This document shows positions 1-64,000 of a stretch of DNA of 64,000 bases, piece by piece (position 1 is the stretch's first letter; each line of letters starts with the position of its first letter). Made by a program: the position numbers and the translations under genes. This stretch comes from Eledone cirrhosa (taxonomy: Eukaryota): the NCBI GenBank assembly GCA_964016885.1, contig OZ024744.1, forward strand, positions 115,072,001-115,136,000, read 5' to 3'. The notes beneath the pieces are model-generated. The model did not search any database and was not told the origin of the DNA. It worked only from the letters and a program-made list of their open reading frames with translations.

Positions 1-363
1 TTGGTGTCATGATAAAATACACCCAGTACACTCTGTAAAGTGGTAGTGTTGGTGTCATGATAAAATACACCCAGTACACTCTGTAAAGTGGTAGTGCTGG
101 TGTCATGATAAAATACACCCAGTACACTCTGTTATGTGGTAGTGTTGGTGTCATGATAAAATACTCCCAGTACACTCTGTAAAGAGGTAGTGTTGGTGTC
201 ATGATAAAATACACCCAGTACACTCTGTAAAGTGGTAGTGTTGGTGTCATGATAAAATACATCCAGTACACTCTGTAAAGAGGTAGTGTTGGTGTCATGA
301 TAAAATACACCCAGTACACTCTGTAAAGTGGTAGTGTTGGTGTCATGATAAAATACACCCAGT
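1..363. repeat. 48-bp minisatellite (runs off window start), inverted relative of the 672-6720 array
   Basis: Unit ttggtgtcatgataaaatacacccagtacactctgtaaagtggtagtg, about 7.5 copies; its reverse complement aligns to the next array's unit. Confidence 0.95.
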
Positions 364-560
364 CGAGGTGGCATTGTTGTTGTTGTTGTGGTAGTGAGTG
401 GTGGCAGCAGCAGTGGTGGGGTAAGGAGGTCAATGAAAATTATGGTAGGGATGATGATGATATTGATGATGATTTACTAAAATAAATATAATATTTGTGG
501 TAAAAGTACTTTGTTAGTTGATGAGGTATCATTAAAATGTGTCCCTAATCACTATTTCAG

Positions 561-630
561 CACTTGTAGAACAACTGAGAGATTCTGAGGGAAACCTTCG
601 CCATGAAGTTGATTCATTGAAGAAAGAAAG
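561..630 (+). CDS. LEKR1: LEKR1-like coiled-coil protein, internal exon A (first exon in window; upstream exons lie outside)
   Basis: Acceptor tatttcAG|561, donor 630|GTaggg. 2 nt + LVEQLRDSEGNLRHEVDSLKKE + 2 nt; the phase-2 end joins exon B in frame. Confidence 0.8.
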
Positions 631-671: not shown

Positions 672-3600
672 ACCCCTTTATAGTCAGTAGTGGGTAGTAA
701 TTTATGTCATGACACCTACATGACCCCTTTATAGTCAGTACTGGGTAATTTATGTCATGACACCTACATGACCCCTTTATAGTCAGTAATGGGTAATTTA
801 TGTCATGACACCTACATGACCCCTTTATAGTCAGTACTGGGTAATTTATGTCATGACACCTACATGACCCCTTTATAGTCAGTAATGGGTAATTTATGTC
901 ATGACACCTACATGACCCCTTTATAGTCAGTACTGGGTAATTTATGTCATGACACCTACATGACCACTTTATGGTCAGTACTGGGTAATTTATGTCATGA
1001 CACCTACATGACCACTTTACAGTGTGTACTGGGTACTTTTTGTTGTGACACCTACATGACCACTTTACAGTGTGTACTGGGTACTTTTTGTTGTGACACC
1101 TACATGACCACTTTACAGTGTGTACTGGGTACTTTTTGTTGTGACACCTACATGACCACTTTACAGTGTGTACTGGGTACTTTTTGTTGTGACACCTTCA
1201 TGACCACTTTAAAGTGTGTACTGGGTACTTTTTGTCATGACACCTACATGACCATTTTACAGTGTGTACTGGGTACTTTTTGTTGTGACACCTACATGAC
1301 CACTTTACAAAGTGTACTCGGTACTTTTTGTTGTGACACCTACGTGACCACTTTACAGTGTGTACTGGGTACTTTTTGTTGTGACACCTAAATGACCAAT
1401 TTACAGTGTGGACTGGGTACTTTTTGATGTGACAGCCATATGACCACTTTACAGTGTGGACTGGGTACTTTTTGTGGTGACACCTACTAGACCACTTTAC
1501 TGTGTCGACTGGGTGCTTTTCGTTGTGACATCTACAAGACCACTTTACAGTGTGTACTGGGTACATTTTGTGATACCTACATGATCACTTTACAGTGTGT
1601 ACTGGGTACTTTTTTGTTGTGACACCTACATGACCACTTCACAGTGTGTACTGGGTACTTTTGTGATACCTACATGACCACTTTACAGTGCATACTGGGT
1701 ACTTTTTGTCATGACACCTACATGACCACTTTACAGTGTGTACTCGGTACTTTTTGTTGTGACACCTACATGACCACTTTACAGTGTGTACAGGGTACTT
1801 TTTGTTGTGACACCTACATGACTACCTTACAGTGTGTACTGGTTACTTTTTGTTGTGACACCTACATGACTACCTTACAGAGAGAACTGGGTACTTTTTG
1901 TTGTGACACCTACATGACCACATTACAGTGTGTACTGGGTAATTTTTGTTGTGACACCTACATGACCACTTTACCGTATGTACTGAGTACCTTTTGTTGT
2001 TATACCTACAAGACTACCTTACAGTGTGCACTGGGTACGTTTTGTTGTGACACCCACAAGACCAGTTTACCATGTGTACAGGGTATTTTTTGTGGTGACA
2101 CCTACATGATCACTTTACAGTGTGTACTGGGTACTTTTTCTTGTAACACCCACATGTACACTTTACAGTGTGTACTGGGTACTTTTTGTTGTGACACATA
2201 CATGACCACATTACAGTATGTACAGGGTACTTCTTGTTATGACACCTACATGACCACTTTACAGTATGTACTGGGTACTTTTTGTTGTGGCAACTATGTG
2301 ACCACTTTACAGTGTGTACTGGGTACTTTTTATTGTGACACCAACATGACCACTTTACAGTGTGTACTGAGTACTTTTTGTTGTGACACCTACATGACCA
2401 CTTTACAGTATGTACTGGGTACTTTTTATTGTGACACCTACATGACCGCTTTACAGTGTGTACTGGGTACTTTTAATTGTGACACCAACATGACCACTTT
2501 ACAGTGTGAACTGGGTACTTTTTGTTGTGACACCTACATGACCACTTTACAGTGTGTACTGGGTACTTATTATTGTGACACCAACATGACCACTTTACAG
2601 TGTGTACTGGGTACTTTTTGTTGTGACACCTACATGACAACTTTACAGTGTGTACTGGGTACTTTTTGTTGTGACACATACATGACCACTTTACAGTGTG
2701 TACTCGGTACTTTTTGTTGTGACACCTACATGACCACTTTACAGTGTGTACAGGGTACTTTTTGTTGTGACACCTACATGACTACCTTACAGTGTGTACT
2801 GGTTACTTTTTGTTGTGACACCTACATGACTACCTTACAGAGAGAACTGGGTACTTTTTGTTGTGACACCTACATGACCACATTACAGTGTGTACTGGGT
2901 AATTTTTGTTGTGACACCTACATGACCACTTTATCGTATGTACTGAGTACCTTTTGTTGTTATACCTACAAGACTACCTTACAGTGTGCACTGGGTACGT
3001 TTTGTTGTGACACCCACAAGACCAGTTTACCATGTGTACAGGGTATTTTTTGTGGTGACACCTACATGATCACTTTACAGTGTGTACTGGGTACTTTTTC
3101 TTGTAACACCCACATGTACACTTTACAGTGTGTACTGGGTACTTTTTGTTGTGACACATACATGACCACATTACAGTATGTACAGGGTACTTCTTGTTAT
3201 GACACCTACATGACCACTTTACAGTATGTACTGGGTACTTTTTGTTGTGGCAACTATGTGACCACTGTACAGTGTGTACTGGGTACTTTTTATTGTGACA
3301 CCAACATGACCACCTTACAGTGTGTACTGAGTACTTTTTGTTGTGACACCAACATGACCACTTTACAGTGTGTACTGGGTACTTTTTGTTGTGACACCTA
3401 CATGACCACTTTACAGTGTGTACTGGGTACTTATTATTGTGACACCAACATGACCACTTTACAGTGTGTACTGGGTACTTTTTGTTGTGACACCTACATG
3501 ACAACTTTACAGTGTGTACTGGGTACTTTTTGTTGTGACACATACATGACCACTTTACAGTGTGTACTGGGTACTTTTTATTGTGACCTCAACATGACCA

Positions 3601-6600
3601 CTTTACAGTGTGTACTGGGTACTTTTTGTTGTGACACCTACACAACCACTTTACAGTGTAGACATGGTACTTTTGTCATGACACCTACATGACCACTTTA
3701 CAGTGTGTACTGGGTACTTTTGTGATACCTACATGACCACTTTACAGTGCATACTGGGTACTTTTTGTCATGACACCTACATGACCACTTTACAGTGTGT
3801 ACTGGGTACCTTTTGTTGTGATACCTACATGACCACTTTACAGTGTCTACTGACTACTCTTTGTGGTGACACCTACAAGACTACCTTACAGTGTGTACTG
3901 GGTACTTTTTCTGTGACACCTACATGACTACCTTACAGTGTGAACTGGGTAATTTTTGTCATGATACCTACATGACCACTTTACAGTATTTACTCGGTAC
4001 ATTTTGTTATGACACCTACATAAAACTTTACAATGTGGACCGGGTATTTTTTGTCATGACACATACGCAACTATGTTACAGTGTGTAAGGGGTACTTTTT
4101 GTTGTGACCCCTACATGACCACATTACAGTATGTACAGGGTAATATTTGTGGTGACACCTACATTACTACTTTACAGTGTGTACCGGGTACCTTTTCTTG
4201 TGACAACTACATGACCACTTTATAGTGTGTACTGGGTACTTTTTGTTGTGACACCTACATGACCACTTTACAGTGTGTACTGGGTAATTTTTCTTGTGAT
4301 GCCTAAATGACCACATTACAATGTGTACTGGGTACTCTTTGTTGTGACACCTACATGACCACTTTACAGTGTGTACTGGGTACTCTTTCTTGTGACACCT
4401 ACATGACCACATTACAGTGTGTATTGGGTACTTTTTGTTGTGACACCTACATGACCACTTTACAGTGTATACTGGGTACTTTTTGTTGTGACACCTACAT
4501 GACCACTTTACAGTGTGGATTGGGTACTGCTTTTTATGACACCTATATGACCATGTTACAGTGTGTACTGGGTACTTCTTGTTATGACACCTATATGACC
4601 ACTTTACAGTGTGTACAGGGTACTTTTTATTGTGACCCCAACATGACCACTTTACAGTGTGTACTGGGTACCTTTTGTTGTGACACCTACATGACCACTT
4701 TACAGTGTGTACTGGGTACTTTTTGTTGTGACATCTACATGACCACTTTACAGTGTGTACAGGGTTCTTTTGTTTGTGACATCTACATGACTACTTTACA
4801 GTGTGTACTGGGTACGTTTTGTTGTGACACTCACATGACCACTTTACAATGTGTAATGGGTTCTTATTGTTGTGACACCTACACAACCACTTTACAGTGT
4901 GGACTTGGTACTTTTGTCATGACCCCTACATGACCACTTTACAGTGTGTACTGGGTACTTTTTGTTGTGACACCTACATGACCACTTTACAGTGTGGACT
5001 GGGTTCTTTTGTTTGTGACATCTACATGACTACTTTACAGTGTGTATTGGGTACTTTTTGTTGTGACACCTACATGACCACTTTCCAGTGTTTACTGGGT
5101 ACTTTTGTCGTGACACCTACATGACCATGTTACAGTGTGTACTGGGTACTTTTTGTTGTGACACCTACATGACCACTTTACAGTGTGTACTGGGTTCTTT
5201 TTTGTTGTGACACCTACATGACAACTTTACAGTGCGTACAGGGTACTTTTTATTGTGACCCCAACATGACCACTTTACAGTGTGTACTGGGTACTTTTTG
5301 TTGTGACATCTACATGAGCACTTTACAATGTGTAATAGGTTCTTATTGTTGTGACACCTACACAACCACTTTACAGTGTGTACTGGGTACTTTTGTCATG
5401 ACACCTACATAACCACTTTACAGTGTGTACTGGGTACCTTTTGTTGTGACACCTACATGACCACATTACAGTGTGCACTGGGTACCTTTTGTTGTGATAC
5501 CTACATGACCACTTTACAGTGTGTACTGACTACTCTTTGTTGTGACACCTACAAGACTACCTTACAGTGTGTACTGGGTATTTTTTCTGTGACACCTACA
5601 TGACTACCTTACAGTGTGAACTGGGTAATTTTTGTCATGATACCTACATGACCACTTTACAGTATTTACTCGGTACTTTTTGTTATGACACCTACATAAA
5701 ACTTTACAATGTGGACCGGGTATTTTTTGTCATGACACATACGCAACTATGTTACAGTGTGTAAGGGGTACTTTTTGTTGTGACCCCTACATGACCACAT
5801 TAGAGTATGTACAGGGTAATATTTGTGGTGACACCTTCATTACTACTTTACAGTGTGTACCGGGTACCTTTTCTTGTGACAACTACATGACCACTTTACA
5901 GTGTGTACTGGGTAATTTTTCTTGTGATGCCTACATGACCACTTTGCAGTGTGTAGTGCGTACTTTTTGTTGTGACACCTAAATGACCACATTACAATGT
6001 GTACTGGGTACTCTTTGTTGTGACACCTACATGACCACATTACAGTGTGTACTGGGTACTTTTTGTTGTGACACCTACATGACCACTTTATAGTGTGGAC
6101 TGGCTATTTTTGTTGTGACACCTACATGACCACTTTACAGTGTGTACTGGGTACTACTTTTTATGACACCTACATGACCACTTTACAGTGTGTACAGGGT
6201 ACTTTTTATTGTGACCCCAACATGACCACTTTACAGCGTGTACTGGGTACTTTTTGTTGTGACACCTACATGAACACTTTACAATGTGTAATGGGTTCTT
6301 ATTGTTGTGACACCTACGCAACCACTTTACAGTGTGGACATGGTACTTTTGTCATGACACCTACATGACCACTTTACAGTGTGGACTGGGTTCTTTTGTT
6401 TGTGACATCTACATGACTACTTTACAGTGTGTACTGGGTACTTTTTGTTGTGACACCTACATGACCACTTTACAGTGTGTACTGGGTACTTTTTGTTGTG
6501 ACACCCACATGACCACATTACAGTGTGTACTGGGTACTTTTTGTTGTGTCACCTACATGACCACTTTACAATGTTTACTGGGTACTTTTTGTTGTGACAC

Positions 6601-6720
6601 CTACATGACCACTTTACAGTGTGGGCTGGGTACTTTTTGATGTGACACCCACATGACCACATTACAGTGTGGACTGGGTACTTTTTGTTGACACCTACAT
6701 GACCACTTTACAGTGGGGAC
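672..6720. repeat. 48-bp satellite (~125 units) in intron A-B, with higher-order duplications
   Basis: Consensus gaccactttacagtgtgtactgggtactttttgttgtgacacctacat. Variant sub-array at 672-1000; 960-bp block duplication (1741 vs 2701); about 1676-bp duplication (3891 vs 5567). Confidence 0.97.
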
Positions 6721-6948
6721 TGACCTCACTCACTTCCTCTGCTATTTTCCCCCAAATATTTTCGTTTTCCTTTTTTTTTTTTTACTCTGTCTTTCTATTT
6801 CTTTTTCTTTATATCTCATTCCATCTTCTGATGAAGGAAAAGTGTCTGAAATGTTAAGCATTTTTTCCTACTCTATGAAGCGTTAAACTAAAATATATCT
6901 GCATTGTACTGTGTTGTTTAACTCCTAATATTCTTGTTAATATAACAG

Positions 6949-7042
6949 AGACATGACCACCTCAGCTCATCAAGACCAGATTCTGCAATTAAAAAACAGT
7001 TTTAGACAGAAAATGGAAGAATTTGAAAAGAGTCCACTTAAG
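6949..7042 (+). CDS. LEKR1: LEKR1-like exon B
   Basis: taacAG|6949 ... aag|GTaatt. Encodes (R)DMTTSAHQDQILQLKNSFRQKMEEFEKSPLK; phase 2 in, phase 0 out. Confidence 0.85.
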
Positions 7043-7214: not shown

Positions 7215-7610
7215 TCCTACCATCTCATTCTATTTCTCTTCACAACATCCATCACTACCTCTATTCCTCTCACCCAGTCACTTTCATCCTTCCTCAACAC
7301 ATGACCCAACCATCTCATTCTATTTCTCTTCACAACATTTATCACTGGCTATATTCCTCTCACCCAGTTATTTCATCCTTCCTCAACACATGACCCAACC
7401 ATCTCATTCTATTTCTCTTCACAACATTTATCACTGGCTCTATTCCTCTCACCCAGTCACTTTCATCCTTCCTCAACACATGACCCAACCATCTCATTCT
7501 ATTTCTCTTCACAACATTTATCACTGACTATATTCCTCTCACCCAGTTATTTCATCCTTCCTCAACATATGACCCAACCATCTCATTCTATTTCTCTACA
7601 TAACATTCAT
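7215..7610. repeat. 89/90-bp pyrimidine-rich minisatellite (~4.5 units)
   Basis: atgacccaaccatctcattc recurs at 7301, 7390, 7480 and 7569. Confidence 0.9.
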
Positions 7611-7759
7611 TACTAACCCTTGCTGTACTATTCATAATTTATCATCAGAACTTTGTTATGTTATGTTTCAAGCAGAAACTTAATAATGAGAAAATTAGTT
7701 ATATGATAAAATCGCTCCAAGTCCACAGTTATTTAAAATCCATGTTTACAACCAATGAA

Positions 7760-10700
7760 CACTGTCTTAAATTAGAAATATAGCAGTGAAAGTGTTAAAC
7801 AGTGTCTTTCATTAGAAATATGGTAGTGAAAGTGTTAAACAGAGTCTTACATTAGAAATATAGCAGTGAAAGTGTTAAACAGTGTGTTACATTAGAAATA
7901 TGGTAGTGAAAGTGTTAAACAGTGTCTCAAATTAGAAATATAGCAGTGAAAGTGTTAAACAGTGTGTTACATTAGAAATATGGTAGTGAAAGTGTTAAAC
8001 AGTGTCTCAAATTAGAAATATAGCAGTGAAAGTGTTAAACAGTGTGTTACATTAGAAATATGGTAGTGAAAGTGTTAAACAGTGTCTTAAATTAGAAATA
8101 TAGCAGTGAAAGTGTTAAACAGTGTGTTACATTAGAAATATGGTAGTGAAAGTGTTAAACAGTGTCTTAAATTAGAAATATAGCAGTGAAAGTGTTAAAC
8201 AGTGTGTTACATTAGAAATATGGTAGTGAAAGTGTTAAACAGTGTCTTAAATTAGAAATATAGCAGTGAAAGTGTTAAACAGTGTGTTACATTAAAAATA
8301 TGGTAGTGAAAGTGTTAAACAGTGTTTTACATTCGAAATATGGCAGTGAAAATTTTAAGCAGTGTCTTACATTAGAAACATGGTAGTGAAAGTGTTAATC
8401 AGTGTCTGTTATCAGAGATATTGTAGTGAAAGTGTTACACAGTGTCTTACATTAGAAATGTGGTAGTGAAAGTGTTAAACAGTGTCTTACATTAGAAATA
8501 TGGCAGTGAAAGTGTTACACAGTGTCTTACATTAGAAATATGGCAGTGAAAATGATAAACAGTGTCTTACATTAGAAATTTGGTAGTGAAAGTGTTAAAC
8601 AGTGTCTTTCATTAGAAATATGGTAGTGAAAGTGTTAAACTCTGTCTTATATTAGAAATATAGCAGTGAAAGTGTTAAACAGTGTCTTTATTAGAAATAT
8701 GGCAGTGAAAGTGTTAAACTGTGTCTTACATTAGAAATATGGCAGTGAAAGTGTTAAACAATGTCTTACAATAGAAATATGACAGTGAAAGTTTTATACA
8801 GTGTTTTACATTCGAAATATGGCAGTGAAAGTGTTAATTAGTGTCTGTTATCAGAGATATTGTTGTGAAAGTGTTACACAGTGTCTTACATTAGAAATGT
8901 GGTAGTGAAAGTGTTAAACAGTGTCTTACATTAGAAATATGGTAGTGAAAGTGTTACACAGTGTCTTACATTAGAAATATGGCAGTGAAAATGTTCAAAA
9001 GTGTCTTACATTAGAAATATGGCAGTGAAAGTGTTACACAGTGTCTTACATTAGAAATATGGTAGTGAATATGTTAAACAGTGTCTTACATTAGAAATTT
9101 GGTAGTGAAAGTGTTAAACAGTGTCTTAAATTAAAAATATGGTAGTGAAAGTGTTAAACAGTGTCTTACATTAGAAATATGGTAGTGAAAGTGTTAAACA
9201 GTGTCTTTCATTAGAAATATGTTAGTGAAAGTGTTAAAATCTGTCTTATATTAGAAATATAGCAGTGAAAGTGTTAAACAGTGTCATGATTAGAAATATG
9301 GTAGTGAAAGTGTTAAACAGTGTCTTACATTAGAAATATGGCAGTGAAAGTGTTAAACAGTGTCTTACATTAGAAATATGGCAGTGAAAGTGTTAAACAG
9401 TGTTTTACATTCGAAATATGGTAGTGAAAGTGTTAATCAGTGTCTTTTATCAGAGATATGGTAGTGAAAGTGTTACACTTACATTAGAGATATGCTAGTG
9501 AAAGTGTTACACAGTGTCTTACATTAGAAATATGGCAGGGAAAGTGTTCAAAAGTGTCTTACATTAGAAATATGGCAGTGAAAGCGTTACACAGTGTCTT
9601 ACATTAGAAATATGGTAGTGAAAATGTTAAACAGTGTCTTACATTAGAAATTTGGTAGTGAAAGTGTTAAACAGTGTCTTAAATTAGAAATATGGTAGTG
9701 AAAGTGTTAAACAGTGTCTTACATTAGAAATATGGTAGTGAAAGTGTTAAACAGTGTCTTTCATTAGAAATATGGTAGTGAAAGTGTTAAACATTGTCTT
9801 TCATTAGAAATATGGTAGTGAAAGTGTTACACAGTGTCTTACCTTAGAAATATGGTAGTGAAAGTGTTAAACAGTGACTTACATTAGAAATATGGCAGTG
9901 AAAGTGTTACACAGTGTCTTACATTATAAATATGGTAGTGAAAGTGTTAAACAGTGTCTTACATTAGAAATATGGTAGTGAAAGTGTTAAACAGTGTCTT
10001 ACTTTAGAAATATGGCAGTGAAAGTGTTACAGTGTCTTACATTAGAAATATGGTAATGAAAATGTTAAACAGTGTCTTACATTAGAAATTTGGTAGTGAA
10101 AGTGTTAAACAGTGTCTTTCATTAGAAATATGGTAGTGAAAGTGTTAAACAGTATCTTTCATTAGAAATATGGTAGTGAAAGTGTTAAACAGTGTCTTAC
10201 ATTAGAAATATGGCAGTGAAAGTGTTAAACAGTGTCTTACATTAGAAATATGGCAGTGAAAGTGTTAAACAGTGTTTTACATTCGAAATATGGTAGTGAA
10301 AGTGTTAATCAGTGTCTTTTATCAGAGATATGGTAGTGAAAGTGTTACACTTACATTAGAGATATGCTAGTGAAAGTGTTACACAGTGTCTTACATTAGA
10401 AATATGGCAGGGAAAGTGTTCAAAAGTGTCTTACATTAGAAATATGGCAGTGAAAGCGTTACACAGTGTCTTACATTAGAAATATGGTAGTGAAAATGTT
10501 AAACAGTGTCTTACATTAGAAATATGGTAGTGAAAGTGTTAAACAGTGTCTTTCATTAGAAATATGGTAGTGAAAGTGTTAAACATTGTCTTTCATTAGA
10601 AATATGGTAGTGAAAGTGTTAACCATTGTCTTACCTTAGAAATATGGTAGTGAAAGTGTTAAACAGTGACTTACATTAGAAATATGGCAGTGAAAGTGTT

Positions 10701-12480
10701 ACACAGTGTCTTACATTATAAATATGGTAGTGAAAGTGTTAAACAGTGTCTTACATTAGAAATATGGTAGTGAAAGTGTTAAACAGTGTCTTACTTTAGA
10801 AATATGGCAGTGAAAGTGTTACAGTGTCTTACATTAGAAATATGGTAATGAAAATGTTAAACAGTGTCTTACATTAGAAATTTGGTAGTGAAAGTGTTAA
10901 ACAGTGTCTTTCATTAGAAATATGGTAGTGAAAGTGTTAAACAGTGTCTTTCATTAGAAATATGGTAGTGAAAGTGTTAAACAGTGGCTTACATTAGAAA
11001 TATGGCAGTGAAAGTGTTAAACAGTGTCTTTTATTAGAAATATGGTAGTGAAAGTGTTAAACAGTGTCTTACATTAGAAATATGGTAGTGAAAGTGTTAA
11101 ACAGTGTCTTACATTAGAGATATGCTAGTGAAAGTGTTAAACAGTGTCTTTCATTAGAAATATGGTAGTGAAAGTGTTAAACAGTGGCTTACATTAGAAA
11201 TATGGTAGTGAAAGTGTTAAACAGTGTCTTTTATTAGAAATATGGTAGTGAAAGTGTTAAACAGTGTCTTACATTAGAAATATGGTAGTGAAAGTGTTAA
11301 ACAGTGTCTTACATTAGAGATATGCTAGTGAAAGTGTTAAACAGTGTCTTTCATTAGAAATATGGTAGTGAAAGTGTTAAACAGTGGCTTACATTAGAAA
11401 TATGGTAGTGAAAGTGTTAAACAGTGTCTTTTATTAGAAATATGGTAGTGAAAGTGTTAAACAGTGTCTTACATTAGAAATATGGTAGTGAAAGTGTTAA
11501 ACAGTGTCTTTCATTAGAAATATGGTAGTGAAAGTGTTAAACAGTGGCTTACATTAGAAATATGGTAGTGAAAGTGTTCAACAGTGTCTTACATTAGAAA
11601 TATGGTAGTGAAAGTGTTAAACAGTGTCTTTCATTAGAAATATGGTAGTGAAAGTGTTAAACAGTGTCTTTCGTTAGCAATATGATAATGAAAGTGTTAA
11701 CCAGTGTCTTTTATTAGAAATATGGCAGTGAAAGTGTTAAACAGTGTCTTTAATTAGAAATTTGATGATGAAAATGTTAAACATTAGAACTATGGTAGTG
11801 AAAGTGTTAAACAGTGTCTTTCATTAGAAATATGGTACTGAAAGTGTTAAACAGTGTCTTTCATTAAACAGTGTCTTTAATTAGAAATATGATGTTGAAA
11901 ATGTTAAATGTTATGGTAGTGAAAGTGTTAAATGTGTCTTTCATTAGAAATATGGCAGTGAAAGTGTTAAACAGTGTATTTCATGAGAAATATGGTAGTG
12001 AAAGTGTTAAACAGTGTCTTTCAGTAGAGGTATGCTAGTGAAAGTATTAAACAGTGTCTTTCATTAGAAATATGGTAGTGAAAGTGTTAAAAAGTATCTT
12101 TTATTAGAAATATGGTAGTGAAAGTGTTAAACTGTGTCTTTCATTAGAAATATGGCAGTGAAAGTGTTAAACAGTGTCTTTCATTAGAAATATGGCAGTG
12201 AAAGTATTAAACAGTGTCTTTCATTAAAAATATGGTAGTGAAAGTGTTAAACAGTGTCTTTCATCAGAAATATGGCAGTGAAAGTGTTAAACAGTGTCTT
12301 TCATTAGAAATATGGCAGTGAAAGTGTTAAACAGTGTCTTTCATTAGAAATATGGCAGTGAAAGTGTTAAACAGTGTCTTTTATTAGAAATATGGTAGTG
12401 AAAGTGTTAAACTGTGTCTTTTAGAAATATAGTAGTGAAAGTGTTAAACAGTGTCTTTTACTATAGATATGTTTGTGAAA
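7760..12480. repeat. 40-bp satellite (~115 units) in intron B-C
   Basis: Unit acagtgtcttacattagaaatatggtagtgaaagtgttaa. 80-bp dimer periodicity at 7850-8290; about 0.8-0.87 kb block duplication (9471 vs 10343). Confidence 0.97.
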
Positions 12481-12534
12481 GTGGTTATATCACTGTAAGG
12501 CTAATGAAAATTCTAATAATTATTTTCTTTCCAG

Positions 12535-12621
12535 ATGGAAACAGTTTTACAAAAAGAAAGAAACCACCACATTGTTGAAATTGAGAAACTCAAACAAGAA
12601 ATGACAGAAAGTTTTCATATG
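12535..12621 (+). CDS. LEKR1: LEKR1-like exon C
   Basis: ttttctttccAG|12535 ... atg|GTatat. Encodes METVLQKERNHHIVEIEKLKQEMTESFHM, 87 nt, phase 0/0. Confidence 0.85.
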
Positions 12622-48383: not shown

Positions 48384-48503
48384 GAATTGTTCATATTTAA
48401 GGCCAAAAACAAAATTTCAACCAAAAGTACCAAGCTAAACTACAGAGTTGTTTTTTTCTCTTTGTTCTTGTCACAGCATATTTCTAATTAGTTGGTACAA
48501 TGG

Positions 48504-48509
48504 AATAAA
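48504..48509 (+). promoter_or_regulatory. Candidate polyadenylation signal of the LEKR1-like gene
   Basis: AATAAA about 120 nt after the stop, followed by GT-rich sequence; a second AATAAA lies at 48596-48601. Confidence 0.45.
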
Positions 48510-49800: not shown

Positions 49801-49869
49801 GTGGGGGCATATTGTCTATATGCTTCAGCTTCGGCTTGTACCCGTGGGAAGTCGGGTACTCTGTATTAC

Positions 49870-50385: not shown

Positions 50386-50399
50386 TACCAAGAAAAAGA

Positions 50400-51480: not shown

Positions 51481-51554
51481 GTTCACTGGCAGTGAATAAC
51501 AGACACAGTAACACATCTCCAGCATTAGAGGCTGAGCAAATAAAATAATAATAA

Positions 51555-51905
51555 TTGTTTCTACTTTAGGTACAAGGCCAACAATTTGAAGGGGAGGGAG
51601 AAAGTCGATTAAATCAACACCAGTGTATTACTGGTACTTTATTTTATTGAATCTGTAAGGATGAAAAGCAAAGCTGACTTCGGCGAGGTTTGAACACAAA
51701 ACGCAAAGGGACGTAACTCTATGCTGCAAAGCATATTGTCGATGCTCTACTGATTACTGCCAATCTACAGTCTTTAAATTATTTCTGATTTAGGCCCAAG
51801 ACCAGCAATTTGAAGGGAAGGGAGAGTTTATTAAATTGACCCCGATTCATTACTGGTACTTTATTTTATCAACCCCAGTAAGAATAAAAGGCAAAGCTAA
51901 CCCTG
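51555..51905 (-). mobile_element. Two tandem minus-strand copies of the same SINE family (second one partial)
   Basis: actggtacttttattttatt...ggatgaaaagcaaagctgac...tttgaac and a second actggtactttattttatc...aaaaggcaaagct. Confidence 0.8.
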
Positions 51906-52059
51906 ACTGTTGTGTGTGTGTGTTTGTGTGAATAGTCCTTTGTAATTGTGCCTCATTAGTTTTTTTTTATTTTTGAATAAATATAATTTCTTTATTTAAT
52001 CATGTTTGGTCTGTGGTATTATCAAGTTAAAGTGGGAAGACTTGAAATTTGGGAAACTT

Positions 52060-52960
52060 ATTTGTTGCACACAATTGGTATCTCTCTTATGACAGGGTCT
52101 CTAATTGATGACAAAGAAATGTGATTCTGTTTCTAATAGTGAGTTTAGTTTGCCCTATATAGTCTTTCTTACATCCTTTACATCTAATGGCATATATTAC
52201 ATTTTTTGTTGAACAAGTGAAATGACTTTCTACAAAAAATGTTTGTCCTGATTTAAATTTATACATTGTGTCTCGAATCAGATTAAAGCAAGTTTCACAA
52301 TTACGGTGACCACATGTTTTAACTGTTGGTGTTGTGTTTGTGGTGGGTAATTTGGTGCTGGTGAGTAGTTTTTTTAAAGCAATTTTTGGTTGTCTTTTGC
52401 TTTTGATTATTTCATGTGTTTTGAGTGCTATTTTCATTTTCCGCTCTTGTCTCAATAATGGGATATTCTTGTGGATAATGTTGTATGCCTCTGTATTTCT
52501 TGGGTTGTGTGTTGAGATATATGGTAGAATATTGGATGTATCTGAAGTTGTTTTTGTTTTCGAAATTCTTGAATGTCTATTGCTTTAGTTAGTTTTATTC
52601 TGTTCTCTTTTGAGGAGAATTCCTTTAATTCTATGTTTCATAGTTTCAGACAATTGTGCAAATTCTTCTTGCTAGATTAATTGGAATATTTGTCTTCATG
52701 TGTTTTGGATGTTAAAGCCATATTTCAACCTAGAATGTTCATATATCTGGACTTCCAGATATGCCGTGACTAAATTGACATAAACTGGAGTAACTTTTGT
52801 ACCCATTGTAGGACCCAATATTTGTAAATATTACCATTGAAATTTAAAAAAAATTGTTTTGTAGAATGAATTTTAGTCCCCCAGTAATAACATTTTTTTA
52901 AAATTTTTTATTCTTTCCAGGATTTCATTGAAGAGTTTTCCAAGCTAGAATCCTACTGCC
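52060..52960 (-). mobile_element. Penelope-like element remnant (RT fragment, Cys-rich linker, GIY-YIG)
   Basis: LQILGPTMGTKVTPVYVNL..AYLE (PLE RT motif) at about 52760-52830; TCGHRNCETC...NVIYAIRCKGCKKDYIGQT..IRNR in ORF 52087-52455. Confidence 0.85.
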
Positions 52961-52999
52961 TCTAGTCTGTATTTCATTCTCCTTCCTCTTTTCCCCCTC

Positions 53000-54330
53000 A
53001 GTCTTCCTCTTCTTCTCTTTTCAGCATTTCCATATTTCCCTTTTCCCTCTCAGTGTCTCCCATTTGTGTAGCAGTGGCCCAAGGCTCAATATATACAATA
53101 GAGAAGGGACAACATTGGTGGACTAAGTGCATAATGTTGAATTGACAAAGAAGTGACCATTCACTGTGACCACAGGGCAGATATCGCTCTGCATTGCAAT
53201 GATCCAGCCCCTGAAAACAGACCCAAAGCCGGCTGCTGGGTACAAATTGTCAACCCTATCAAAAGTTGATCAGATCCCCACACCAGGTTTCTCAGCCATC
53301 CTCTCTCTCACGTATCACATAAGACCACCAGTGCCAACATTGTTAACATCTTGCTAACATCTTGTCCAAATTTTTAATTCTATATTTAGCAGAGTTCTGG
53401 GTCTAAATTATCAATATGATCCCTCTTGTTTGAGTCCATTCTCAGCAGTGCCATCACTCCATGGCTCACAGAACTTGGAATTTTCCCATTCTACTGCCTA
53501 TTGCAGTAGACGTCTGCCAGGATGTCACCAAACAAAGCCAGATTGTGACTTTGTTGCCACCCATGCCCATTGAATGGTTTTTGTCTCCTCTTGTTTGAAA
53601 GTACACACCCTAGCTTTGACACAAGCTTCATGCTTGACATTGAAGAATTGGTTGAGGTACAAGAATGTTGGTTATGATGCTTTTCCTAAACACCTCTTCT
53701 AGCTTTCTAACTAGTTCTCCCTCTAGTCTAGTTTTCTCTATCACTACACCTTTACTAGACCTTTTCAAGTCTACTCTAAACTCTGTAGTTGACAACTTTG
53801 AAATATAGACAACCTATACTAGCCTTATCTACTTTCCTACAGAATACAATCTAAATACGATCTGGATGAGGGTTGGAGACATCTGAGCAGATTTGTGAGG
53901 CTTTTACACCCTCCTCCCCTATCTGTTAGTCCCAGCGAGCATCTAAGATTCCTTTCCAGTTGCCCACTAACACTAAAGAATGGGACATTCTGAGAAAGTT
54001 CTCTAGGTGCCTGAAGAAATCAGACTATCCAGTCCGTGTGAGGGCATAGAAAGCCACAAACCTGAAAGCAAACCCATCACTTCTGGTCACATCTGGCACC
54101 ACTAACTTACCTTCTGGGTCCAGGAAGATGGTCAATATTGTGAGATCCAAGTCTTTTCAAAACAACTCTGCAACTCCACCTCCAGATTATGGATGGCTTG
54201 GTGATGCATACACTTTGTAGCCTCTGAAAATAGGTGTGAAATTTGTTGTTCGTAATTCTGGTCTTGCTGACGGCCACCATATCTATACTCAGTGACTCTG
54301 TTTCAAAGGTGATGTGTATTTATACTGCCT
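53000..54330 (-). mobile_element. Highly decayed Tx1/L1-like LINE ORF2 remnant
   Basis: Minus strand gives GKIPSSVSHGVMALLR...DN-RP-TLLNIELKI (RT N-terminal NFRPITLLN-type motif, about 53370-53490) and DMVAVSKTR (APE-like) near 54260-54285; many stops. Confidence 0.55.
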
Positions 54331-54419
54331 GTCCTGAGTAAAACCATGTTTAATGAAGAAATAATTTGTAAGAACCACTTACCTTATTTGTGTCGATAAA
54401 AGATGGTTGATCTGTCCTC

Positions 54420-55420
54420 ATTTTACGTTCGCTTTTCCCTGCTTAAAGGGTGGGACGGGTCCTATTCAGCACAGCATCTCTCCACTTGTCACGGTCCTTC
54501 ATCATCTCCTCTGTGAGCTTCAGCAATCTGAGGTCTGCTCTCACCACCTCCGCCCATGTTTTTCGTGGTCTACCTCTACTACATCTTCCTTCTACTGGCA
54601 TTTCTTGGCACTTCTTCACCCATCGGTCATCCTCCATGCGCATCACATGTCCATATCAATGCAGTCTTCTCTGCTGCACACTACAGCTTATCCCTCTTAT
54701 ACACAGTTTCTCTCTCAACACATCCATGCTGGGTCGTTCACGCACATTTACACTGCATATCCAACAGAGCATGCTTGCTTCATTTCTCTCCAGCTGTCAC
54801 ATATCCTCTGTAGTTGCTGCCCATGTCTCACTACCATGCAGCATCACGCACCTTACACAGGCATCATATAAGCAGCCTTTCGTATGCAGGGAGAAACCCT
54901 TCTTTGTCAGCAGAGGAAGCAGCTCCCTAAACTTCTTCCAACCCGTCCTTATTCTAGATACTATGGCCTCAGAGCACCCTCCTCCCGTGCTAATCTGATC
55001 ACCTAGGTACCGGAAGCTATCAACCGCTTCTATAGAACCCACCTGTATTTGAAAAATGTGTCTATCAATGCGACTTCTACTGTCTAATTTCCCTGTACAT
55101 CTACTGCACATGTAGTTTTCCCTACCTGTTAGTTTGCCTGCTATCCCACTACATCTCTTGTGTACCCAAGATCTGCATTGCATACATTTTATAGAATTTA
55201 TGCCAGTTCCTTTTCTACATATTGAACATGGCCATTTCCCAGATGGAATCAGGGTTTTGTCCTCTTTTCTACTCATCAACACCTTTGTCTTAGCTAGGTT
55301 CACTCTCAGTCCTCTTGATTCCAACTGCTGTTTCCATAGCCAGAATATATTCTGTAGCTCCTCTACTGATTCTGCTATAAGAACCAGATCATAAGCATAG
55401 AGAAGTTCCTATGGACAGCC
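54420..55420 (-). mobile_element. RTE-clade LINE, 3' ~1 kb of ORF2 plus 3' end
   Basis: ELLYAYDLVL (decayed YADD), GLRVNLAKTKV, PHD-like insertion (C..C...WVHKRC), FRYLG, GWKKFRELLPLL, MLHGSETW, RGRPRKTW, DRDKWR. Confidence 0.92.
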
Positions 55421-56459
55421 AGAATATCTGTTGGTTGGTGATTGATCCTTGGAAGTTGCCAATTGCATCAAGGAATTTCATTTTTAAGTCTGTGTATGTG
55501 TTATGCATAATTTCTATTGCTTTTATGTGTGTGTGGGTAGTCCTTTTTGAGGTGGGGTGGGGTATGTAATTGAGTTCTGTAATGTTTGTATTACTCTATT
55601 ATGTATTCCAGCCGAGAGGCATATTCTATCATGGCATCAACCATGTTGTCATGTCTTTGACACAACTGAAGAGTCCTCCCAACCCTTTGGAATGGTTTCT
55701 ACAGTAGGATGCTCTTCCGATCATAAACCACTTTGCATGGTGCACTGGCTGTATTTTTCTTAGCACCAGCTCTAGAGAGGTTGGTGGTGGTTAACTCAAA
55801 TTAGATCCTTGTCTACCCTCTGGGGAGGTGTGTATGAGAAGGATGATAAATATGTTATGGGGTGTATGACATGTGTGGTGGGATTTGACAGGGTAAAGAG
55901 TAGGAGAGGGGATGATTATTAAGGAGCACTGAGCATGGATAGGCTGGGGTGTTCAGTGATGGTTAAGTTAGATACTAAGGAATGATAGTGAAAGGGACAA
56001 TAATGGAGTGGTGTACTGGCATTGTGATAATAGCTGAGGAGTGATAGTTGAAGAGGCATAGTTGTGGTGGCCATGGTTGCTAAGTAGTTATAGAGGGGAT
56101 GGGTCAGATCAGGTCACATCTTTTAAGCATGTCTTCTCCAGTAGATGTCTCCAATTCTCACAACTCCTTGTCTGAGATTCAGTTCCTTAACCATTTAGCA
56201 TTTAAACCAGCCATATCCAGCCAGAATTCTCTCACCTCTTTCTATTCAAACTGGTGGTATCCGGCTGCTCATGCTTATGTTAACGTATTGTTCTCAAAAT
56301 AAATATCAAAATAATTATCAAGATAATTATGTGAAAATACACGGAGGAGATGACGAAGGACCATGACAAGTGGAGAGATGCTGTACTGAATAGAACCAGT
56401 CCCACCCTTGCAAGCAAGGAAAAGCGGACGTAAAACCACCACCACCAATGCTAAAGAGT

Positions 56460-56814
56460 TAAAGTCAGTCTTCACTACCGCATTCCAAGTTTTCCTTAGG
56501 TGTCGTCTACAGGTCCCAACAACTGATATTTCTCTGCACTTTATACACCTATAAACACATCACATGTCCGACACAGTCTTCTCTCTTGTACATTACATCC
56601 AATTCCTCTTATGTCAAATTTTCTCTCAGCTCACTTATGCTAAATTGTTCATGCACATTACACATCCATCAGAACATACTCTCTTCATTTCTTCCTAGCC
56701 ATTACAGGTCTTCTGCAGTTAAGACCCATATTTCACTGCTATGTAGCATTGTAGTTCTCACACAAGTATCATACAGTCTATTATCCTTCACTCTGAGAGA
56801 GGAACCCTTTTGTT
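56460..56814 (-). mobile_element. Decayed RTE fragment, uninterrupted near-identical copy of 16594-16804 + 19340-19475
   Basis: Long exact matches such as aggtcccaacaactgatatttctctgcactttatacacctataaacacatcacatgtcc. Confidence 0.8.
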
Positions 56815-56919
56815 AATATATGACTGAGTGGGTTGATGGTAGGGTGGCTGGGTGTTTTGTAGATTTGACAATTTGTTCCAAAGAAATCCATCAACAACAG
56901 AGAATAAATTAAAATTTAA

Positions 56920-56925
56920 TTTATT
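56920..56925 (-). promoter_or_regulatory. Candidate polyadenylation signal of SYNRG
   Basis: tttatt on + (AATAAA on -) at the end of an AT-rich 3' UTR-like block (56880-57416); an alternative lies near 56987. Confidence 0.4.
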
Positions 56926-57416
56926 AAAACTTCATGACTATTTTTCTTTCAATTTAATTAACAATGTTTCTTTGTTTATATATATTTTTATTGTTGTTTT
57001 AAAATCTACTCTGGAGACGAATTAATGAAGAATCATCCATCTGTTTACAGAATTACCTTTTTCAAAGTAAAGGAATTATATTTAATTGTTCTGTTTTAAA
57101 TATCTATTAAGAGATAAATTAATGACTTTAAAAAAATCAATTAGATACATTTAAATAAAAAAAAAAAGGAAGTGATCATCAGATTGGACCAAGCAAACCA
57201 TGTTTCCATTGTTTTTCTCCATTACTGATATTCTGTGTTGCTCACAACTCCTGCCAGAAGTGTCACTGTTTATATATACGTAAAGAAAGTTAAGGAGCCA
57301 ATCATTGGATGAGACCAAAGAAACAATGTTTCCATTGGTCTTTACTTTGTTGATACTATCTGTCAGTCTCAACTCCTGGCAATAAAAGTTTTCCCCTATA
57401 GATGTTTTCTAACAGT

Positions 57417-57659
57417 TCAGATTAGTTGAGGCAGTTTCAGGGCTGGCAGCATAGAATCTACACAGTTGACCCAGAAATTAGCACAGGTCGTGTGGTACTG
57501 GCGCCCACTGTATGTCAATTTGGCAGCTCGGTCATTATCATTTGATATGCGGTCAAAAACATCAACATTTAGGAGACATACTCCACAGGCCTTCAGCTGA
57601 GAGGCTGTATCATCATTTTTAAGAACTGCCGAAGTATAGTTGAACGAACTCACTTCAGA
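57417..57659 (-). CDS. SYNRG: Synergin gamma, last coding exon
   Basis: Minus-strand acceptor tttctttcAG (ct at 57660-57661). Encodes SEVSSFNY...ACGVCLLNVD...KLTYSGRQYHTTCANFWVNCVDSMLPALKLPQLI*, matching the synergin-gamma C-terminal signature (CGVCLLNVD...YGGHQYHASCANFWINCV...LPDLL). Confidence 0.9.
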   Translation of the reverse strand, partial: SEVSSFNYTSAVLKNDDTASQLKACGVCLLNVDVFDRISNDNDRAAKLTYSGRQYHTTCANFWVNCVDSMLPALKLPQLI

Positions 57660-58337: not shown

Positions 58338-61300
58338 CTACACAGTGACAGTGACAGCTATACAGTGACAGTGACAGCTACACAGTGACAGTAACAGCTA
58401 CACAGTGAGAGCGACAGCTACACAGTGACAGTGACAGCTATACAGTGACAGTGACAGCTACACAGTGACAGTGACAGCTACACAGTGACAGTGACAGCTA
58501 CACAGTGACAGTGACAGCTATACAGTGACAGTGACAACTACACAGTGACAGTGACAGCTACACAGTGACAGTGACAGCTACACAGTGACAGTGACAGCTA
58601 CACAGTGACAGTGACAGCTACACAGTGAGAGTGACAGCTACACAGTGACAGTGACAGCTACACAGTGACAGTGACAGCTACACAGTGACAGTGACAGCTA
58701 CACAGTGACAGTGACAGCTACACAGTGAGAGTGACAGCTACACAGTGACAGTGACAGCTACACAGTGACAGTGACAGCTATACAGTGACAGTGACAGGGA
58801 CAGCTACACAGTGACAGTGACAGCTACACAGTGACAGTGACAGCTACACAGTGACAGTGACAGCTACACAGTGACAGTGACAGCTACACAGTGACAGTGA
58901 CAGCTACACAGTGACAGTGACAGCTATACAGTGACAGTGACAGCTACACAGTGACAGTGACAGCTATACAGTGACAGTGACAGCTACACAGTGACAGTGA
59001 CAGCTACACAGTGACAGTGACAGCTACACAGTGACAGTGACAGCTACACAGTGACAGTGACAGCTACACAGTGACAGTGACAGCTACACAGTGACAGTGA
59101 CAGCTATACAGTGACAGTGACAGCTACACAGTGACAGAGACAGCTACACAGTGACAGTGACAGCTACACAGTGACAGCTATACAGTGACAGTGACAGCTA
59201 CACAGTGACAGTGACAGCTAGACAGTGACAGTAACAGCTACACAGTGACAGTGACAGCTACACAGTGACAGTAACAGCTACACAGTGACAGCTATACAGT
59301 GACAGTGACAGCTACACAGTGACAGTGACAGCTACACAGTGACAGTGACAGCTACACAGTGACAGTGACAGCTACACAGTGACAGTGACAGCTACACAGT
59401 GACAGTGACAGCTACACAGTTACAGTGACAGCTACACAGTGACAGTAACAGCTACACAGTGACAGCTATACAGTGACAGTGACAGCTACACAGTGACAGT
59501 GACAGCTACACAGTGACAGTGACAGCTACACAGTGACAGTGACAGCTACACAGTGACAGTGACAGCTACACAGTGACAGTGACAGCTACACAGTGACAGC
59601 TATACAGTGACAGTAACAGCTACACAGTGACAGTGACAGCTACACAGTGACAGTGACAGCTACACAGTGTCAGTAACAGCTACACAGTGACAGTGACAGC
59701 TACACAGTGACAGTGACAGTGACAGTAACAGCTACACGGTGACAGTAACAGCTACACAGTGAGAGCGACAGCTACACAGTGACAGTGACAGCTATACAGT
59801 GACAGTGACAGCTACACAGTGACAGTGACAGCTACACAGTGACAGTGACAGCTACACAGTGACAGTGACAGCTATACAGTGACAGTGACAACTACACAGT
59901 GACAGTGACAGCTACACAGTGACAGTGACAGCTACACAGTGACAGTGACAGCTACACAGTGACAGTGACAGCTACACAGTGAGAGTGACAGCTACACAGT
60001 GACAGTGACAGCTACACAGTGACAGTGACAGCTACACAGTGACAGTGACAGCTACACAGTGACAGTGACAGCTACACAGTGAGAGTGACAGCTACACAGT
60101 GACAGTGACAGCTACACAGTGACAGTGACAGCTATACAGTGACAGTGACAGCTACACAGTGACAGGGACAGCTACACAGTGACAGTGACAGCTACACAGT
60201 GACAGTGACAGCTACACAGTGACAGTGACAGCTACACAGTGACAGTGACAGCTACACAGTGACAGTGACAGCTACACAGTGACAGTGACAGCTATACAGT
60301 GACAGTGACAGCTACACAGTGACAGTGACAGCTATACAGTGACAGTGACAGCTACACAGTGACAGTGACAGCTACACAGTGACAGTGACAGCTACACAGT
60401 GACAGTGACAGCTACACAGTGACAGTGACAGCTACACAGTGACAGTGACAGCTACACAGTGACAGTGACAGCTACACAGTGACAGTGACAGCTACACAGT
60501 GACAGTGACAGCTATACAGTGACAGTGACAGCTACACAGTGACAGAGACAGCTACACAGTGACAGTGACAGCTACACAGTGACAGCTATACAGTGACAGT
60601 GACAGCTACACAGTGACAGTGACAGCTAGACAGTGACAGTAACAGCTACACAGTGACAGTGACAGCTACACAGTGACAGTAACAGCTACACAGTGACAGC
60701 TATACAGTGACAGCTATACAGTGACAGTGACAGCTACACAGTGACAGTGACAGCTACACAGTGACAGTGACAGCTACACAGTGACAGTGACAGCTACACA
60801 GTGACAGTGACAGCTACACAGTGACAGTGACAGCTACACAGTTACAGTGACAGCTACACAGTGACAGTAACAGCTACACAGTGACAGCTATACAGTGACA
60901 GTGACAGCTACACAGTGACAGTGACAGCTACACAGTGACAGTGACAGCTACACAGTGACAGTGACAGCTACACAGTGACAGCTACACAGTGACAGTGACA
61001 GCTACACAGTGACAGTGACAGCTATACAGTGACAGTAACAGCTACACAGTGACAGTGACAGCTATACAGTGACAGTGACAGCTACACAGTGACAGTGACA
61101 GCTACACAGTGTCAGTAACAGCTACACAGTGACAGTGACAGCTACACAGTGACAGTGACAGTGACAGTAACAGCTACACGGTGACAGTAACAGCTACACA
61201 GTGACAGTGACAGCTATACAGTGACAGTGACAGCTACACAGTGACAGTGACAGCTACACAGTGACAGTAACAGCTACACAGTGACAGTAACAGCTACACA

Positions 61301-64000
61301 GTGACAGTGACAGCTACACAGTGACAGTGACAGCTATACAGTGACAGTGACAGCTACACAGTGACAGTGACAGCTACACAGTGACAGTGACAGCTACACA
61401 GTGACAGTGACAGCTATACAGTGACAGCTACACAGTGACAGTGACAGTGACAGCTACACAGTGACAGTAACAGCTACACAGTGACAGCTACACAGTGACA
61501 GTGACAGTGACAGCTACACAGTGACAGTAACAGCTACACAGTGACAGTAACAGCTACACAGTGACAGTAACAGCTACATGGTGACAGTAACAGCTACACA
61601 GTGACAGTAACAGCTACATGGTGACAGTAACAGCTACACAGTGACAGTAACAGCTACACGGTGACAGTAACAGCTACACAGTGACAGTAACAGCTACATG
61701 GTGACAGTAACAGCTACACAGTGACAGTAACAGCTACACGGTGACAGTAACAGCTACACAGTGACAGTGACAGCTACACAGTGACAGTGACAGCTACACA
61801 GTGACAGTAACAGCTACACAGTGACAGTGACAGCTACACAGTGACAGTAACAGCTACACAGTGACAGTAACAGCTACACGGTGACAGTAACAGCTACACA
61901 GTGACAGCTACACAGTGACAGTAACAGCTACACAGTGACAGTGACAGCTACACAGTGACAGTGACAGCTACACAGTGACAGTAACAGCTACACGGTGACA
62001 GTAACAGCTACACAGTGACAGTGACAGCTACACAGTGACAGTAACAGCTACACAGTGACAGTGACAGCTACACAGTGACAGTGACAGCTACACAGTGACA
62101 GTAACAGCTACACAGTGACAGTGACAGTGACAGCTACACGGTGACAGTAACAGCTACACGGTGACAGTAACAGCTACACGGTGACAGTAACAGCTACACA
62201 GTGACAGTGACAGCTACACAGTGACAGTGACAGCTACACAGTGACAGTGACAGTAACAGCTACACGGTGACAGTGACAGCTACACAGTGACAGTGACAGC
62301 TACACAGTGACAGTGACAGCTACACAGTGACAGTAACAGCTACACAGTGACAGTGACAGCTACACAGTGACAGTAACAGCTACACAGTGACAGTGACAGC
62401 TACACGGTGACAGTAACAGCTACACAGTGACAGTGACAGCTACACAGTGACAGTGACAGCTATACAGTGACAGTAACAGCTACACAGTGACAGTGACAGC
62501 TACACAGTGACAGTGACAGCTATACAGTGACAGTGACAGCTACACAGTGACAGTGACAGCTATACAGTGACAGTGACAGCTACACAGTGACAGTGACAGC
62601 TACACAGTGACAGTGACAGCTACACAGTGACAGTGACAGCTACACAGTGACAGTGACAGCTACACAGTGACAGTAACAGCTACACAGTGACAGTAACAGC
62701 TACACAGTGACAGTGACAGCTAGACAGTGACAGTAACAGCTACACAGTGACAGTAACAGCTATACAGTGACAGTGACAGCTACACAGTGACAGTAACAGC
62801 TACACGGTGACAGTAACAGCTACACGGTGACAGTAACAGCTACACGGTGACAGTAACAGCTACACGGTGACAGTGACAGCTACACAGTGACAGTGACAGC
62901 TACACAGTGACAGTAACAGCTACACGGTGACAGTAACAGCTACACGGTGACAGTAACAGCTACACAGTGACAGTGACAGCTACACAGTGACAGTAACAGC
63001 TACACAGTGACAGTGACAGCTACACAGTGACAGTGACAGTGACAGCTACACAGTGACAGTAACAGCTACACAGTGACAGTAACAGCTACACAGTGACAGT
63101 AACAGCTACATGGTGACAGTAACAGCTACACAGTGACAGTAACAGCTACATGGTGACAGTAACAGCTACACAGTGACAGTAACAGCTACACGGTGACAGT
63201 AACAGCTACACAGTGACAGTAACAGCTACATGGTGACAGTAACAGCTACACAGTGACAGTAACAGCTACACGGTGACAGTAACAGCTACACAGTGACAGC
63301 TACACAGTGACAGTGACAGCTACACAGTGACAGTAACAGCTACACAGTGACAGTGACAGCTACACAGTGACAGTAACAGCTACACAGTGACAGTAACAGC
63401 TACACGGTGACAGTAACAGCTACACAGTGACAGTAACAGCTACACAGTGACAGTGACAGCTACACGGTGACAGTAACAGCTACACGGTGACAGTAACAGC
63501 TACACGGTGACAGTAACAGCTACACAGTGACAGTTACACAGTGACAGTGACAGCTACACAGTGACAGTGACAGCTACACAGTGACAGTGACAGCTACACA
63601 GTGACAGTAACAGCTACACAGTGACAGTGACAGCTACACAGTGACAGTAACAGCTATACAGTGACAGTAACAGCTACACAGTGACAGTGACAGCTACACG
63701 GTGACAGTAACAGCTACACGGTGACAGTAACAGCTACACGGTGACAGTAACAGCTACACAGTGACAGTGACAGCTACACAGTGACAGTGACAGCTACACA
63801 GTGACAGTGACAGTAACAGCTACACGGTGACAGTGACAGCTACACAGTGACAGTGACAGCTACACAGTGACAGTGACAGCTACACAGTGACAGTAACAGC
63901 TACACAGTGACAGTGACAGCTACACAGTGACAGTAACAGCTACACAGTGACAGTGACAGCTACACGGTGACAGTAACAGCTACACAGTGACAGTGACAGC
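58338..64000. repeat. 20-bp satellite (>280 units, runs off window) in the SYNRG intron
   Basis: Unit cacagtgacagtgacagcta, built from acagtg hexamers, with 14- and 26-bp slip variants. The diagnostic gagagcgaca at 58407 and 59761 marks a ~1.35-kb duplication. Confidence 0.97.

Follow-up and report, generated by a model that had tools for sequence, protein, structure and literature searches.

Why should long tandem arrays occupy nearly every intron of two intact genes and spare the DNA between them? The question is raised by a 64,000-nucleotide stretch of the genome of the octopus Eledone cirrhosa (the window hereafter; C28:115,072,001-115,136,000), which lies on a chromosome of 136.5 Mb, 21 Mb from its end, and holds parts of the genes LEKR1 and SYNRG. 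An earlier interpretation, made from the letters of the window alone (the sequence-only reading), proposed that amplification is coupled to transcribed gene bodies and gives each intron a private satellite. The analysis presented here bears out the intron pattern and points to a regional effect of the chromosome rather than to an effect of the gene body.

Intron arrays across LEKR1 and SYNRG

Arrays were defined as Tandem Repeats Finder (TRF) calls of at least 300 bp with a period of at least 14 and at least 3 copies, and about 1 Mb around the window was read, with 20 kb and 10 kb in the interior of two array stretches assumed to be array. Each of the seven complete LEKR1 introns in the window carries an array (7/7). 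The gap of 48.4-57.4 kb between the two stop codons (48401..57416) is occupied by dispersed high-copy repeats, holds no array of at least 300 bp, and has as its only TRF tandem repeats a 2-copy 27-mer and a 3-copy 12-mer. With uniform seeding on non-array DNA, the combination of seven occupied introns and an empty gap has a probability of 1e-5, and the empty gap one of 0.015. This pattern extends well beyond the window, because arrays are present in 29 of the 33 introns of both genes (LEKR1, 13/14; SYNRG, 16/19), whereas 20,000 uniform draws gave 17.2 occupied introns on average and never more than 25. A real link between the arrays and gene structure is thereby supported.

The extent of the arrays is more uneven than their occurrence. 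The sequence-only reading held that arrays fill the introns and leave the gap empty, of which the occupancy and the empty gap stand but the filling does not: array makes up only 6% of one intron and 32% of another. Its estimate that about two thirds of the gene span is array likewise holds for window positions 1-48400 (66%) but not for LEKR1 as a whole, where intron array cover is 41%. Cover in SYNRG introns is 80%, or 61% without microsatellite-like units; the largest intron is SYNRG intron 1 (~152 kb), and intron arrays reach 109 kb.

The gene names and the intact, in-frame exons described earlier are upheld by homology. The plus-strand gene was identified as LEKR1 by its first coding exon, 82% identical to the O. 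sinensis protein; the gene comprises 15 exons and 715 amino acids, with an unbroken frame and a full-length identity of 71%. The minus-strand gene is SYNRG (synergin gamma), which is 98% identical to Octopus proteins and spans 571 kb. Its 20-exon chain was placed by tblastn, the first two coding exons by eye; some boundaries are approximate, and small or alternative exons may have been missed. Exon order and frame are intact across all 15 and 20 exons, and homology indicates that both chains are probably spliced as mapped. The two genes are found on the same chromosome in three Octopus species and have consecutive accessions in O. vulgaris.

The eight plus-strand LEKR1 exons inside the window have AG/GT bounds and a single reading frame: exon 8 of 15 (561..630), exons 9 (6949..7042), 10 (12535..12621), 11 (21314..21391), 12 (23345..23510), 13 (29634..29767) and 14 (32933..33041), and the last coding exon (48046..48383), which ends with the stop codon. 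The last coding exon of SYNRG, with the same 98% identity to Octopus proteins, lies on the minus strand at 57417..57659. Single exons in the window were not identified by Pfam, and a homologue search with the 55-amino-acid LEKR1 exon 12 alone returned nothing; protein-atlas matches were weak, and it was the N-terminal exon that gave LEKR1. A candidate 45-nt LEKR1 exon at 7676-7720 was discarded for its weak donor and its absence from the orthologue alignment.

Exon distance and chromosome position

To compare regions, arrays were collapsed to points (seeds) and their density was expressed per 10 kb of non-array DNA. Intron seed density declines with distance from the exon, from 10.8 within 500 bp through 5.7, 2.7 and 2.9 to 1.1 beyond 5 kb; the mean is ~3.8, against 0.94 upstream of LEKR1. 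For nearly half of the intronic arrays (29/63) an exon is less than 500 non-array bases away, with the donor and acceptor sides represented 21:17. These figures argue against the coupling of amplification to transcribed gene bodies, since transcribed deep-intron DNA has the upstream rate and since neither G nor T is over-represented in the RNA-like strand of the monomers (24:34, p = 0.24; 28:32). An empty 9-kb gap has a probability of ~0.4 at about 1 seed per 10 kb, and of 0.03-0.05 at the intron rate. A weaker trend toward exons was also seen at 40 independent kinase loci, where 20 of the 47 arrays of at least 150 bp lie within 1 kb of an exon (26% expected, p = 0.012); this count omits microsatellite-like units and any array that reaches the end of its locus. 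The share of dispersed repeats rises from 0.25 to 0.64 with growing exon distance.

The confinement of arrays to introns, as first described, holds for the 48.4-57.4 kb gap only, as arrays are also present upstream of each gene. Cover is 57% across the 297 kb upstream of LEKR1, which include a 26-bp array (2.5 kb), members of the 40-bp and 59-bp intron-array families further up, and the largest array of all, a ~152-kb array of a 51-bp (17-codon) unit at C28:114,866,325-115,018,231 with a unit match of 95%. This array sits in the low-complexity, Asn-rich part of the first open reading frame (ORF) of an apparent non-long-terminal-repeat (non-LTR) element, and a related non-LTR element without the array is found ~48 kb further up. 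In the 140 kb beyond the 51-bp array, crude ORF and splice-site scans turned up no host exon that was convincing. Three arrays (27% cover) occupy the 25 kb that precede the coding exons of SYNRG, and the first coding exons of LEKR1 and SYNRG each have an array upstream, at ~0.9 kb and 1.2 kb, respectively. A short interstitial (TTAGGG)n tract ends a non-LTR element fragment at window-relative ~-52,330, 4 kb upstream of LEKR1.

Array cover depends on the position along the chromosome. In evenly spaced 10-kb samples of C28, it is 54% at 3-38 Mb (n=6), 1.6% at 45-94 Mb (n=8) and 77% at 101-134 Mb (n=6), so that the chromosome largely displays the regional effect that the sequence-only reading had set against an effect of gene bodies. 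Intervals of 10 kb placed on LEKR1 and SYNRG exons contain an array in 34/34 cases with 45.5% cover (the intervals overlap), compared with 17/37 and 6.7% for autosomal kinase exons and 1/3 and 3.5% for kinase exons of mid-C28. No minisatellite array is present at the exon-centred C28 loci of SMARCB1 (98.7 Mb) and AMN (56.4 Mb). Autosomal samples (n=19) have a mean cover of 25% compared with 40% for C28 (p=0.11), and more than 30% array was found in 6/19 and 9/20 samples, respectively. Long autosomal arrays lie near the ends of C1 and C5, where samples 3-23 Mb from those ends are array-filled, and a 310-bp satellite occurs in mid-C3 and mid-C9. This satellite is shared by C28, C3 and C9 with a unit match of 99-100%, and forms two facing blocks in the C28 sample. 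The C28 samples at 127 and 134 Mb consist entirely of one 16-bp satellite resembling the telomere repeat, which suggests a multi-megabase terminal block of it on this chromosome.

C28 is likely the octopod Z chromosome because AMN and SMARCB1 map to it. AMN is reported as Z-linked in O. vulgaris (bioRxiv 10.1101/2024.12.09.627507), and SMARCB1 appears in the conserved octopus Z list of Coffing et al. (PMC10925132). C28 is also out of size order among the chromosomes. Other searches returned a weak PRPS exon on C28 with stronger PRPS matches on C27 and an unplaced contig, a SPAG9-like match on an unplaced contig, and no match for the JIP_LZII family; a qPCR paper (PMC13122204) was of no use at the level of single genes. 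That the 115-Mb region itself may be ancestral Z is suggested by a loose fit of chromosome lengths. Recombination in Octopus has been described as fitting a rise in rate near the ends of chromosomes, with no obvious reduction on the Z (PMC13669787). Chromosome sizes in this genome are uneven: four chromosomes measure 379-443 Mb and many others 29-61 Mb.

Monomer families and their dispersed relatives

TRF recovered all arrays listed by the sequence-only reading, at their given periods and with unit matches of 85-96%. The privacy of these satellites fared less well: 6 of the 11 window minisatellite arrays have their monomer in common with arrays elsewhere, among 190 arrays compared. The remaining 5/11 have no relative in this sample and cannot be called private, because the sample is less than 0.1% of the genome; array units without relatives elsewhere may be of local origin.

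Sharing extends to other chromosomes for the 48-bp unit. Its first array (1..363, plus strand) starts 33 bases before the window and has the same consensus as three SYNRG-intron arrays (100%) and arrays on other chromosomes (80-94%), and 48-bp units were found again on C4, C5, C8, C23 and C24. The second array (710..6722, 6.0 kb) is a second subfamily in reverse orientation, on the minus strand, with a monomer that corresponds to a dispersed repeat of very high abundance (43 far loci). All following arrays are given on the plus strand. An 89/90-bp array (7219..7614), with a unit in no other sampled array, precedes a 40-bp array (7758..12483, 4.7 kb) whose unit is found again (94%) in intron 2 of LEKR1 and at a site 277 kb before the window start. 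The 34-bp array (19795..20276) makes up 6% of its 8.7-kb intron, which also contains a GIY-YIG fragment (Penelope-like) at 13802-14155 and a decayed LTR-type reverse transcriptase/RNase H fragment at 17165-18540. The 79-bp array (21400..22168) begins 8 bases past a donor and has dispersed copies at 5 far loci; an ACC microsatellite (22841..23325) ends 20 bases before the acceptor; and the 62-bp array (23549..25494), with no relative in the sample, has a partial first unit directly after the donor GT. Between 28611 and 29553, inverted arms of 220 nt that are 98% complementary stand 503 nt apart around a SINE-like (short interspersed nuclear element) repeat, as in a foldback element or one resembling a miniature inverted-repeat transposable element. 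The single Rfam match, a weak tRNA-like one, also falls within a SINE-like repeat.

The 45-bp array (30066..32821) has a consensus 100% the same as that of a 30.6-kb SYNRG-intron array, with the family sense in LEKR1 and antisense in SYNRG, and the 85-bp unit (46626..47487) is found at 100% in SYNRG intron 1. The 69/73-bp array (33096..46195, 13.1 kb) belongs to the family of the 43-kb array of SYNRG intron 1 and is related to 96-bp and 47-bp arrays. On its minus strand the 69/73-bp unit spells the LHGSETW motif of the reverse-transcriptase region of a long interspersed nuclear element (LINE). The 47-bp and 96-bp units spell LHGSETW too, and the motif is also present in a LINE fragment at 26996-27694; we take this LINE to be an RTE element, for which Pfam support is sub-threshold only. 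The last SYNRG intron has a 20-bp array (58338..64000; 8.1 kb) that extends beyond the window end. Longer TRF periods were called at 33,096-46,195 (142, equal to 69+73) and in the 96-bp array (window-relative 296,281-405,338; 288 and 480), which hints at higher-order repeats. In a SYNRG intron, the last 5 kb of a 26.6-kb array of 29-bp units (window-relative 254,745-281,352) consist of forward blocks alternating with inverted ones, an arrangement that template switching would produce.

Many monomers have relatives outside arrays. Among the 66 regional monomers, 29 match non-array DNA in at least two distant loci within the 691 kb searched, and in 16 of these 29 the alignment continues across the array edge into the cognate repeat. 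Some of the dispersed matches may themselves be short remnants of tandem families. Two 64-bp arrays at the same site of homologous flanks would have been copied between loci after flank divergence, because the monomer consensuses are 98.5% alike and the flanks 82% (units between the arrays, 92-95%; one family was measured).

Competing explanations and known systems

On balance, the most probable explanation is that this locus lies in an array-rich distal arm of the likely Z, where minisatellites are born and lengthened by recombination and are kept beside exons as large deletions there would remove coding sequence. A short stretch of intron, or of a SINE or LINE remnant, would be duplicated in tandem and then extended to 0.3-150 kb by unequal exchange and gene conversion, commoner toward chromosome ends. 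Homology-directed repair would copy some arrays elsewhere, often into a related transposon remnant, and selection would keep exons and splice sites free of arrays and guard exon flanks from deletion, leaving 1-3 arrays in nearly every intron. The arrays themselves are most likely without function. The positional, family and strand results are observations, and from them we infer the recombination and retention steps. Several points weigh against this explanation. The case for lengthening by recombination is drawn from other species of Octopus and from minisatellites in general. The shielding of exon-flanking DNA from deletion has been weakly tested: the repeat share rises with exon distance, but repeat identity stays flat at 84-88% and deep-intron DNA is not clearly younger. 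When the number of arrays per intron is fixed, attraction to exons is marginal (median, p=0.20; share within 1 kb, p=0.029), as it is in the 12 introns with at least 4 kb of non-array DNA (p=0.045, or 0.093 without microsatellite-like units), and the gradient comes largely from introns with a non-array remainder below 1.5 kb, each of which bears an array. The kinase loci give p=0.087 when restricted to arrays of at least 300 bp, and as controls they over-represent short-intron genes. If the gap behaved like an intron at its two ends, its lack of arrays would still be mildly unusual (P=0.03-0.05); the label intergenic for the 297 kb before LEKR1 is provisional, coming from the crude exon scans; and 37/66 arrays have no dispersed match in at least two far loci of the 691 kb searched.

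The flat repeat age bears on a different and unlikely reading, in which breaks are aimed at exon- and promoter-proximal chromatin, either because meiotic breaks are placed there or because repair is linked to splicing or to marks on exons. Arrays would then be born by exons, and the distal domain would only raise the rate. Deletion shielding would predict a change in age with exon distance, and the clustering of arrays by exons on donor and acceptor sides alike, the arrays shortly upstream of both first coding exons and the recurrence of the gradient in kinase loci all fit such targeted birth; the marginal within-intron tests and the origin of most of the gradient in introns with a short non-array remainder do not. 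Transcription of the gene body, acting in introns only through R-loops, transcription-associated breaks or rolling circles, would account for the empty gap (P=0.015-0.05) and for the excess of mean intron seed density over the upstream value, yet we consider it improbable: besides the deep-intron rate and the absent strand skew, the 45-bp family runs in opposite senses in the two genes, the ~152-kb array and the 40-bp and 59-bp family arrays lie upstream of LEKR1, and genes elsewhere are mostly spared. We give little credence to a Z-specific build-up of satellites on a hemizygous, poorly purged chromosome, like the giant introns of the Drosophila Y. The placement of AMN and SMARCB1 and the higher mean cover of C28 agree with it, but that difference is not significant by sample, the ends of C1 and C5 are array-filled where mid-C28 is nearly free, and Z recombination is not obviously reduced in the available account (PMC13669787). 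Inflation or misplacement of arrays during assembly is very improbable, as the units of an array diverge from one another by 1-15%, members of one family occur in different flanking DNA, and the exons keep their order and frame, although short-read contigs matched only unique parts of the gap and array lengths come from the assembly alone.

Among known systems, minisatellites and satellites derived from transposons (PMC3389668, PMC6947457, PMC7004042) share with these arrays the origin of monomers from dispersed elements and the running of an array into its parent element, as in the 16 of 29 cases above. They differ, in the text available, in that here the 47, 69/73 and 96-bp families come from one LINE spot and near-identical monomers lie in more diverged cognate flanks at separate loci, suggesting inter-locus transfer. 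The likeness to the Y-loop genes of Drosophila suggested by the sequence-only reading proved superficial. The Y-linked kl-2, kl-3 and kl-5 (PMC12965833) also have satellite-filled introns on a sex chromosome, and the 571-kb SYNRG far exceeds the O. vulgaris median gene length of 20 kb (PMC10700109). However, the Drosophila introns are described as holding megabase simple satellites, whereas those here are at most 152 kb with many different unit types of 14-102 bp, and the octopus chromosome recombines in males. The mirage minisatellites of amphioxus (PMC3087553) are likewise intronic and near splice sites, and the last unit of a 50-bp array (window-relative 74,132-75,235) provides a SYNRG acceptor with its pyrimidine tract and stops short of the AG, 5 bases from the exon. 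The mirage unit, in contrast, is reported to span the exon-intron boundary, and no exon sequence is copied here: a screen of 34 exons against adjacent introns gave one 28-bp match (48 bits) with all others at shuffle level, so an identity with mirage minisatellites was dropped. No description of satellite-filled cephalopod introns was found in the literature searched, which included cephalopod genome papers, had incomplete coverage and left most subscription papers outside.

The closest comparison is with sequence stuttering in the introns of avian dot chromosomes (Hron et al. 2026, PMC12954441), presented there as new and, in the portion available, as limited among vertebrates to birds and gerbils and tied to high guanine-plus-cytosine (GC) content. 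Tandem blocks within single introns, intact exons, neighbouring introns with different repeats and concentration in one chromosomal compartment, whose intergenic DNA is affected too, are common to both, and meiotic gene conversion is proposed as one cause in birds. The octopus is an invertebrate with intron arrays up to 109 kb; its monomers average 39% GC in a window of 30-49%, compared with the GC-rich avian context, and its families are shared between loci, with nearly half matching dispersed repeats, compared with a strictly local origin. Exon edges are copied in 3.4% of dot-chromosome introns and in essentially none here, where about one case would be expected in 32 introns, too few for the contrast to carry weight. 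A tentative and rather doubtful extension is that this is an invertebrate counterpart of avian stuttering, in which satellites on the distal arm of an ancient cephalopod Z hop between cognate transposon remnants by homology-directed repair, settle preferentially by exons and inflate housekeeping genes to 100-570 kb with the genes intact. If true, this AT-rich case would show that stuttering does not depend on GC content, and would direct attention to recombination and to location on the chromosome; the finding would be ordinary if an annotated test showed just a general distal repeat load. The tenfold exon-distance gradient and the near-identical monomers in older transposon flanks provide two genome-wide tests of satellite birth and spread, and genes stuffed with arrays in this way are likely broken up in short-read octopus assemblies and annotations. 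The octopus arrays work like stuttering, yet we do not file them as a member of that class.

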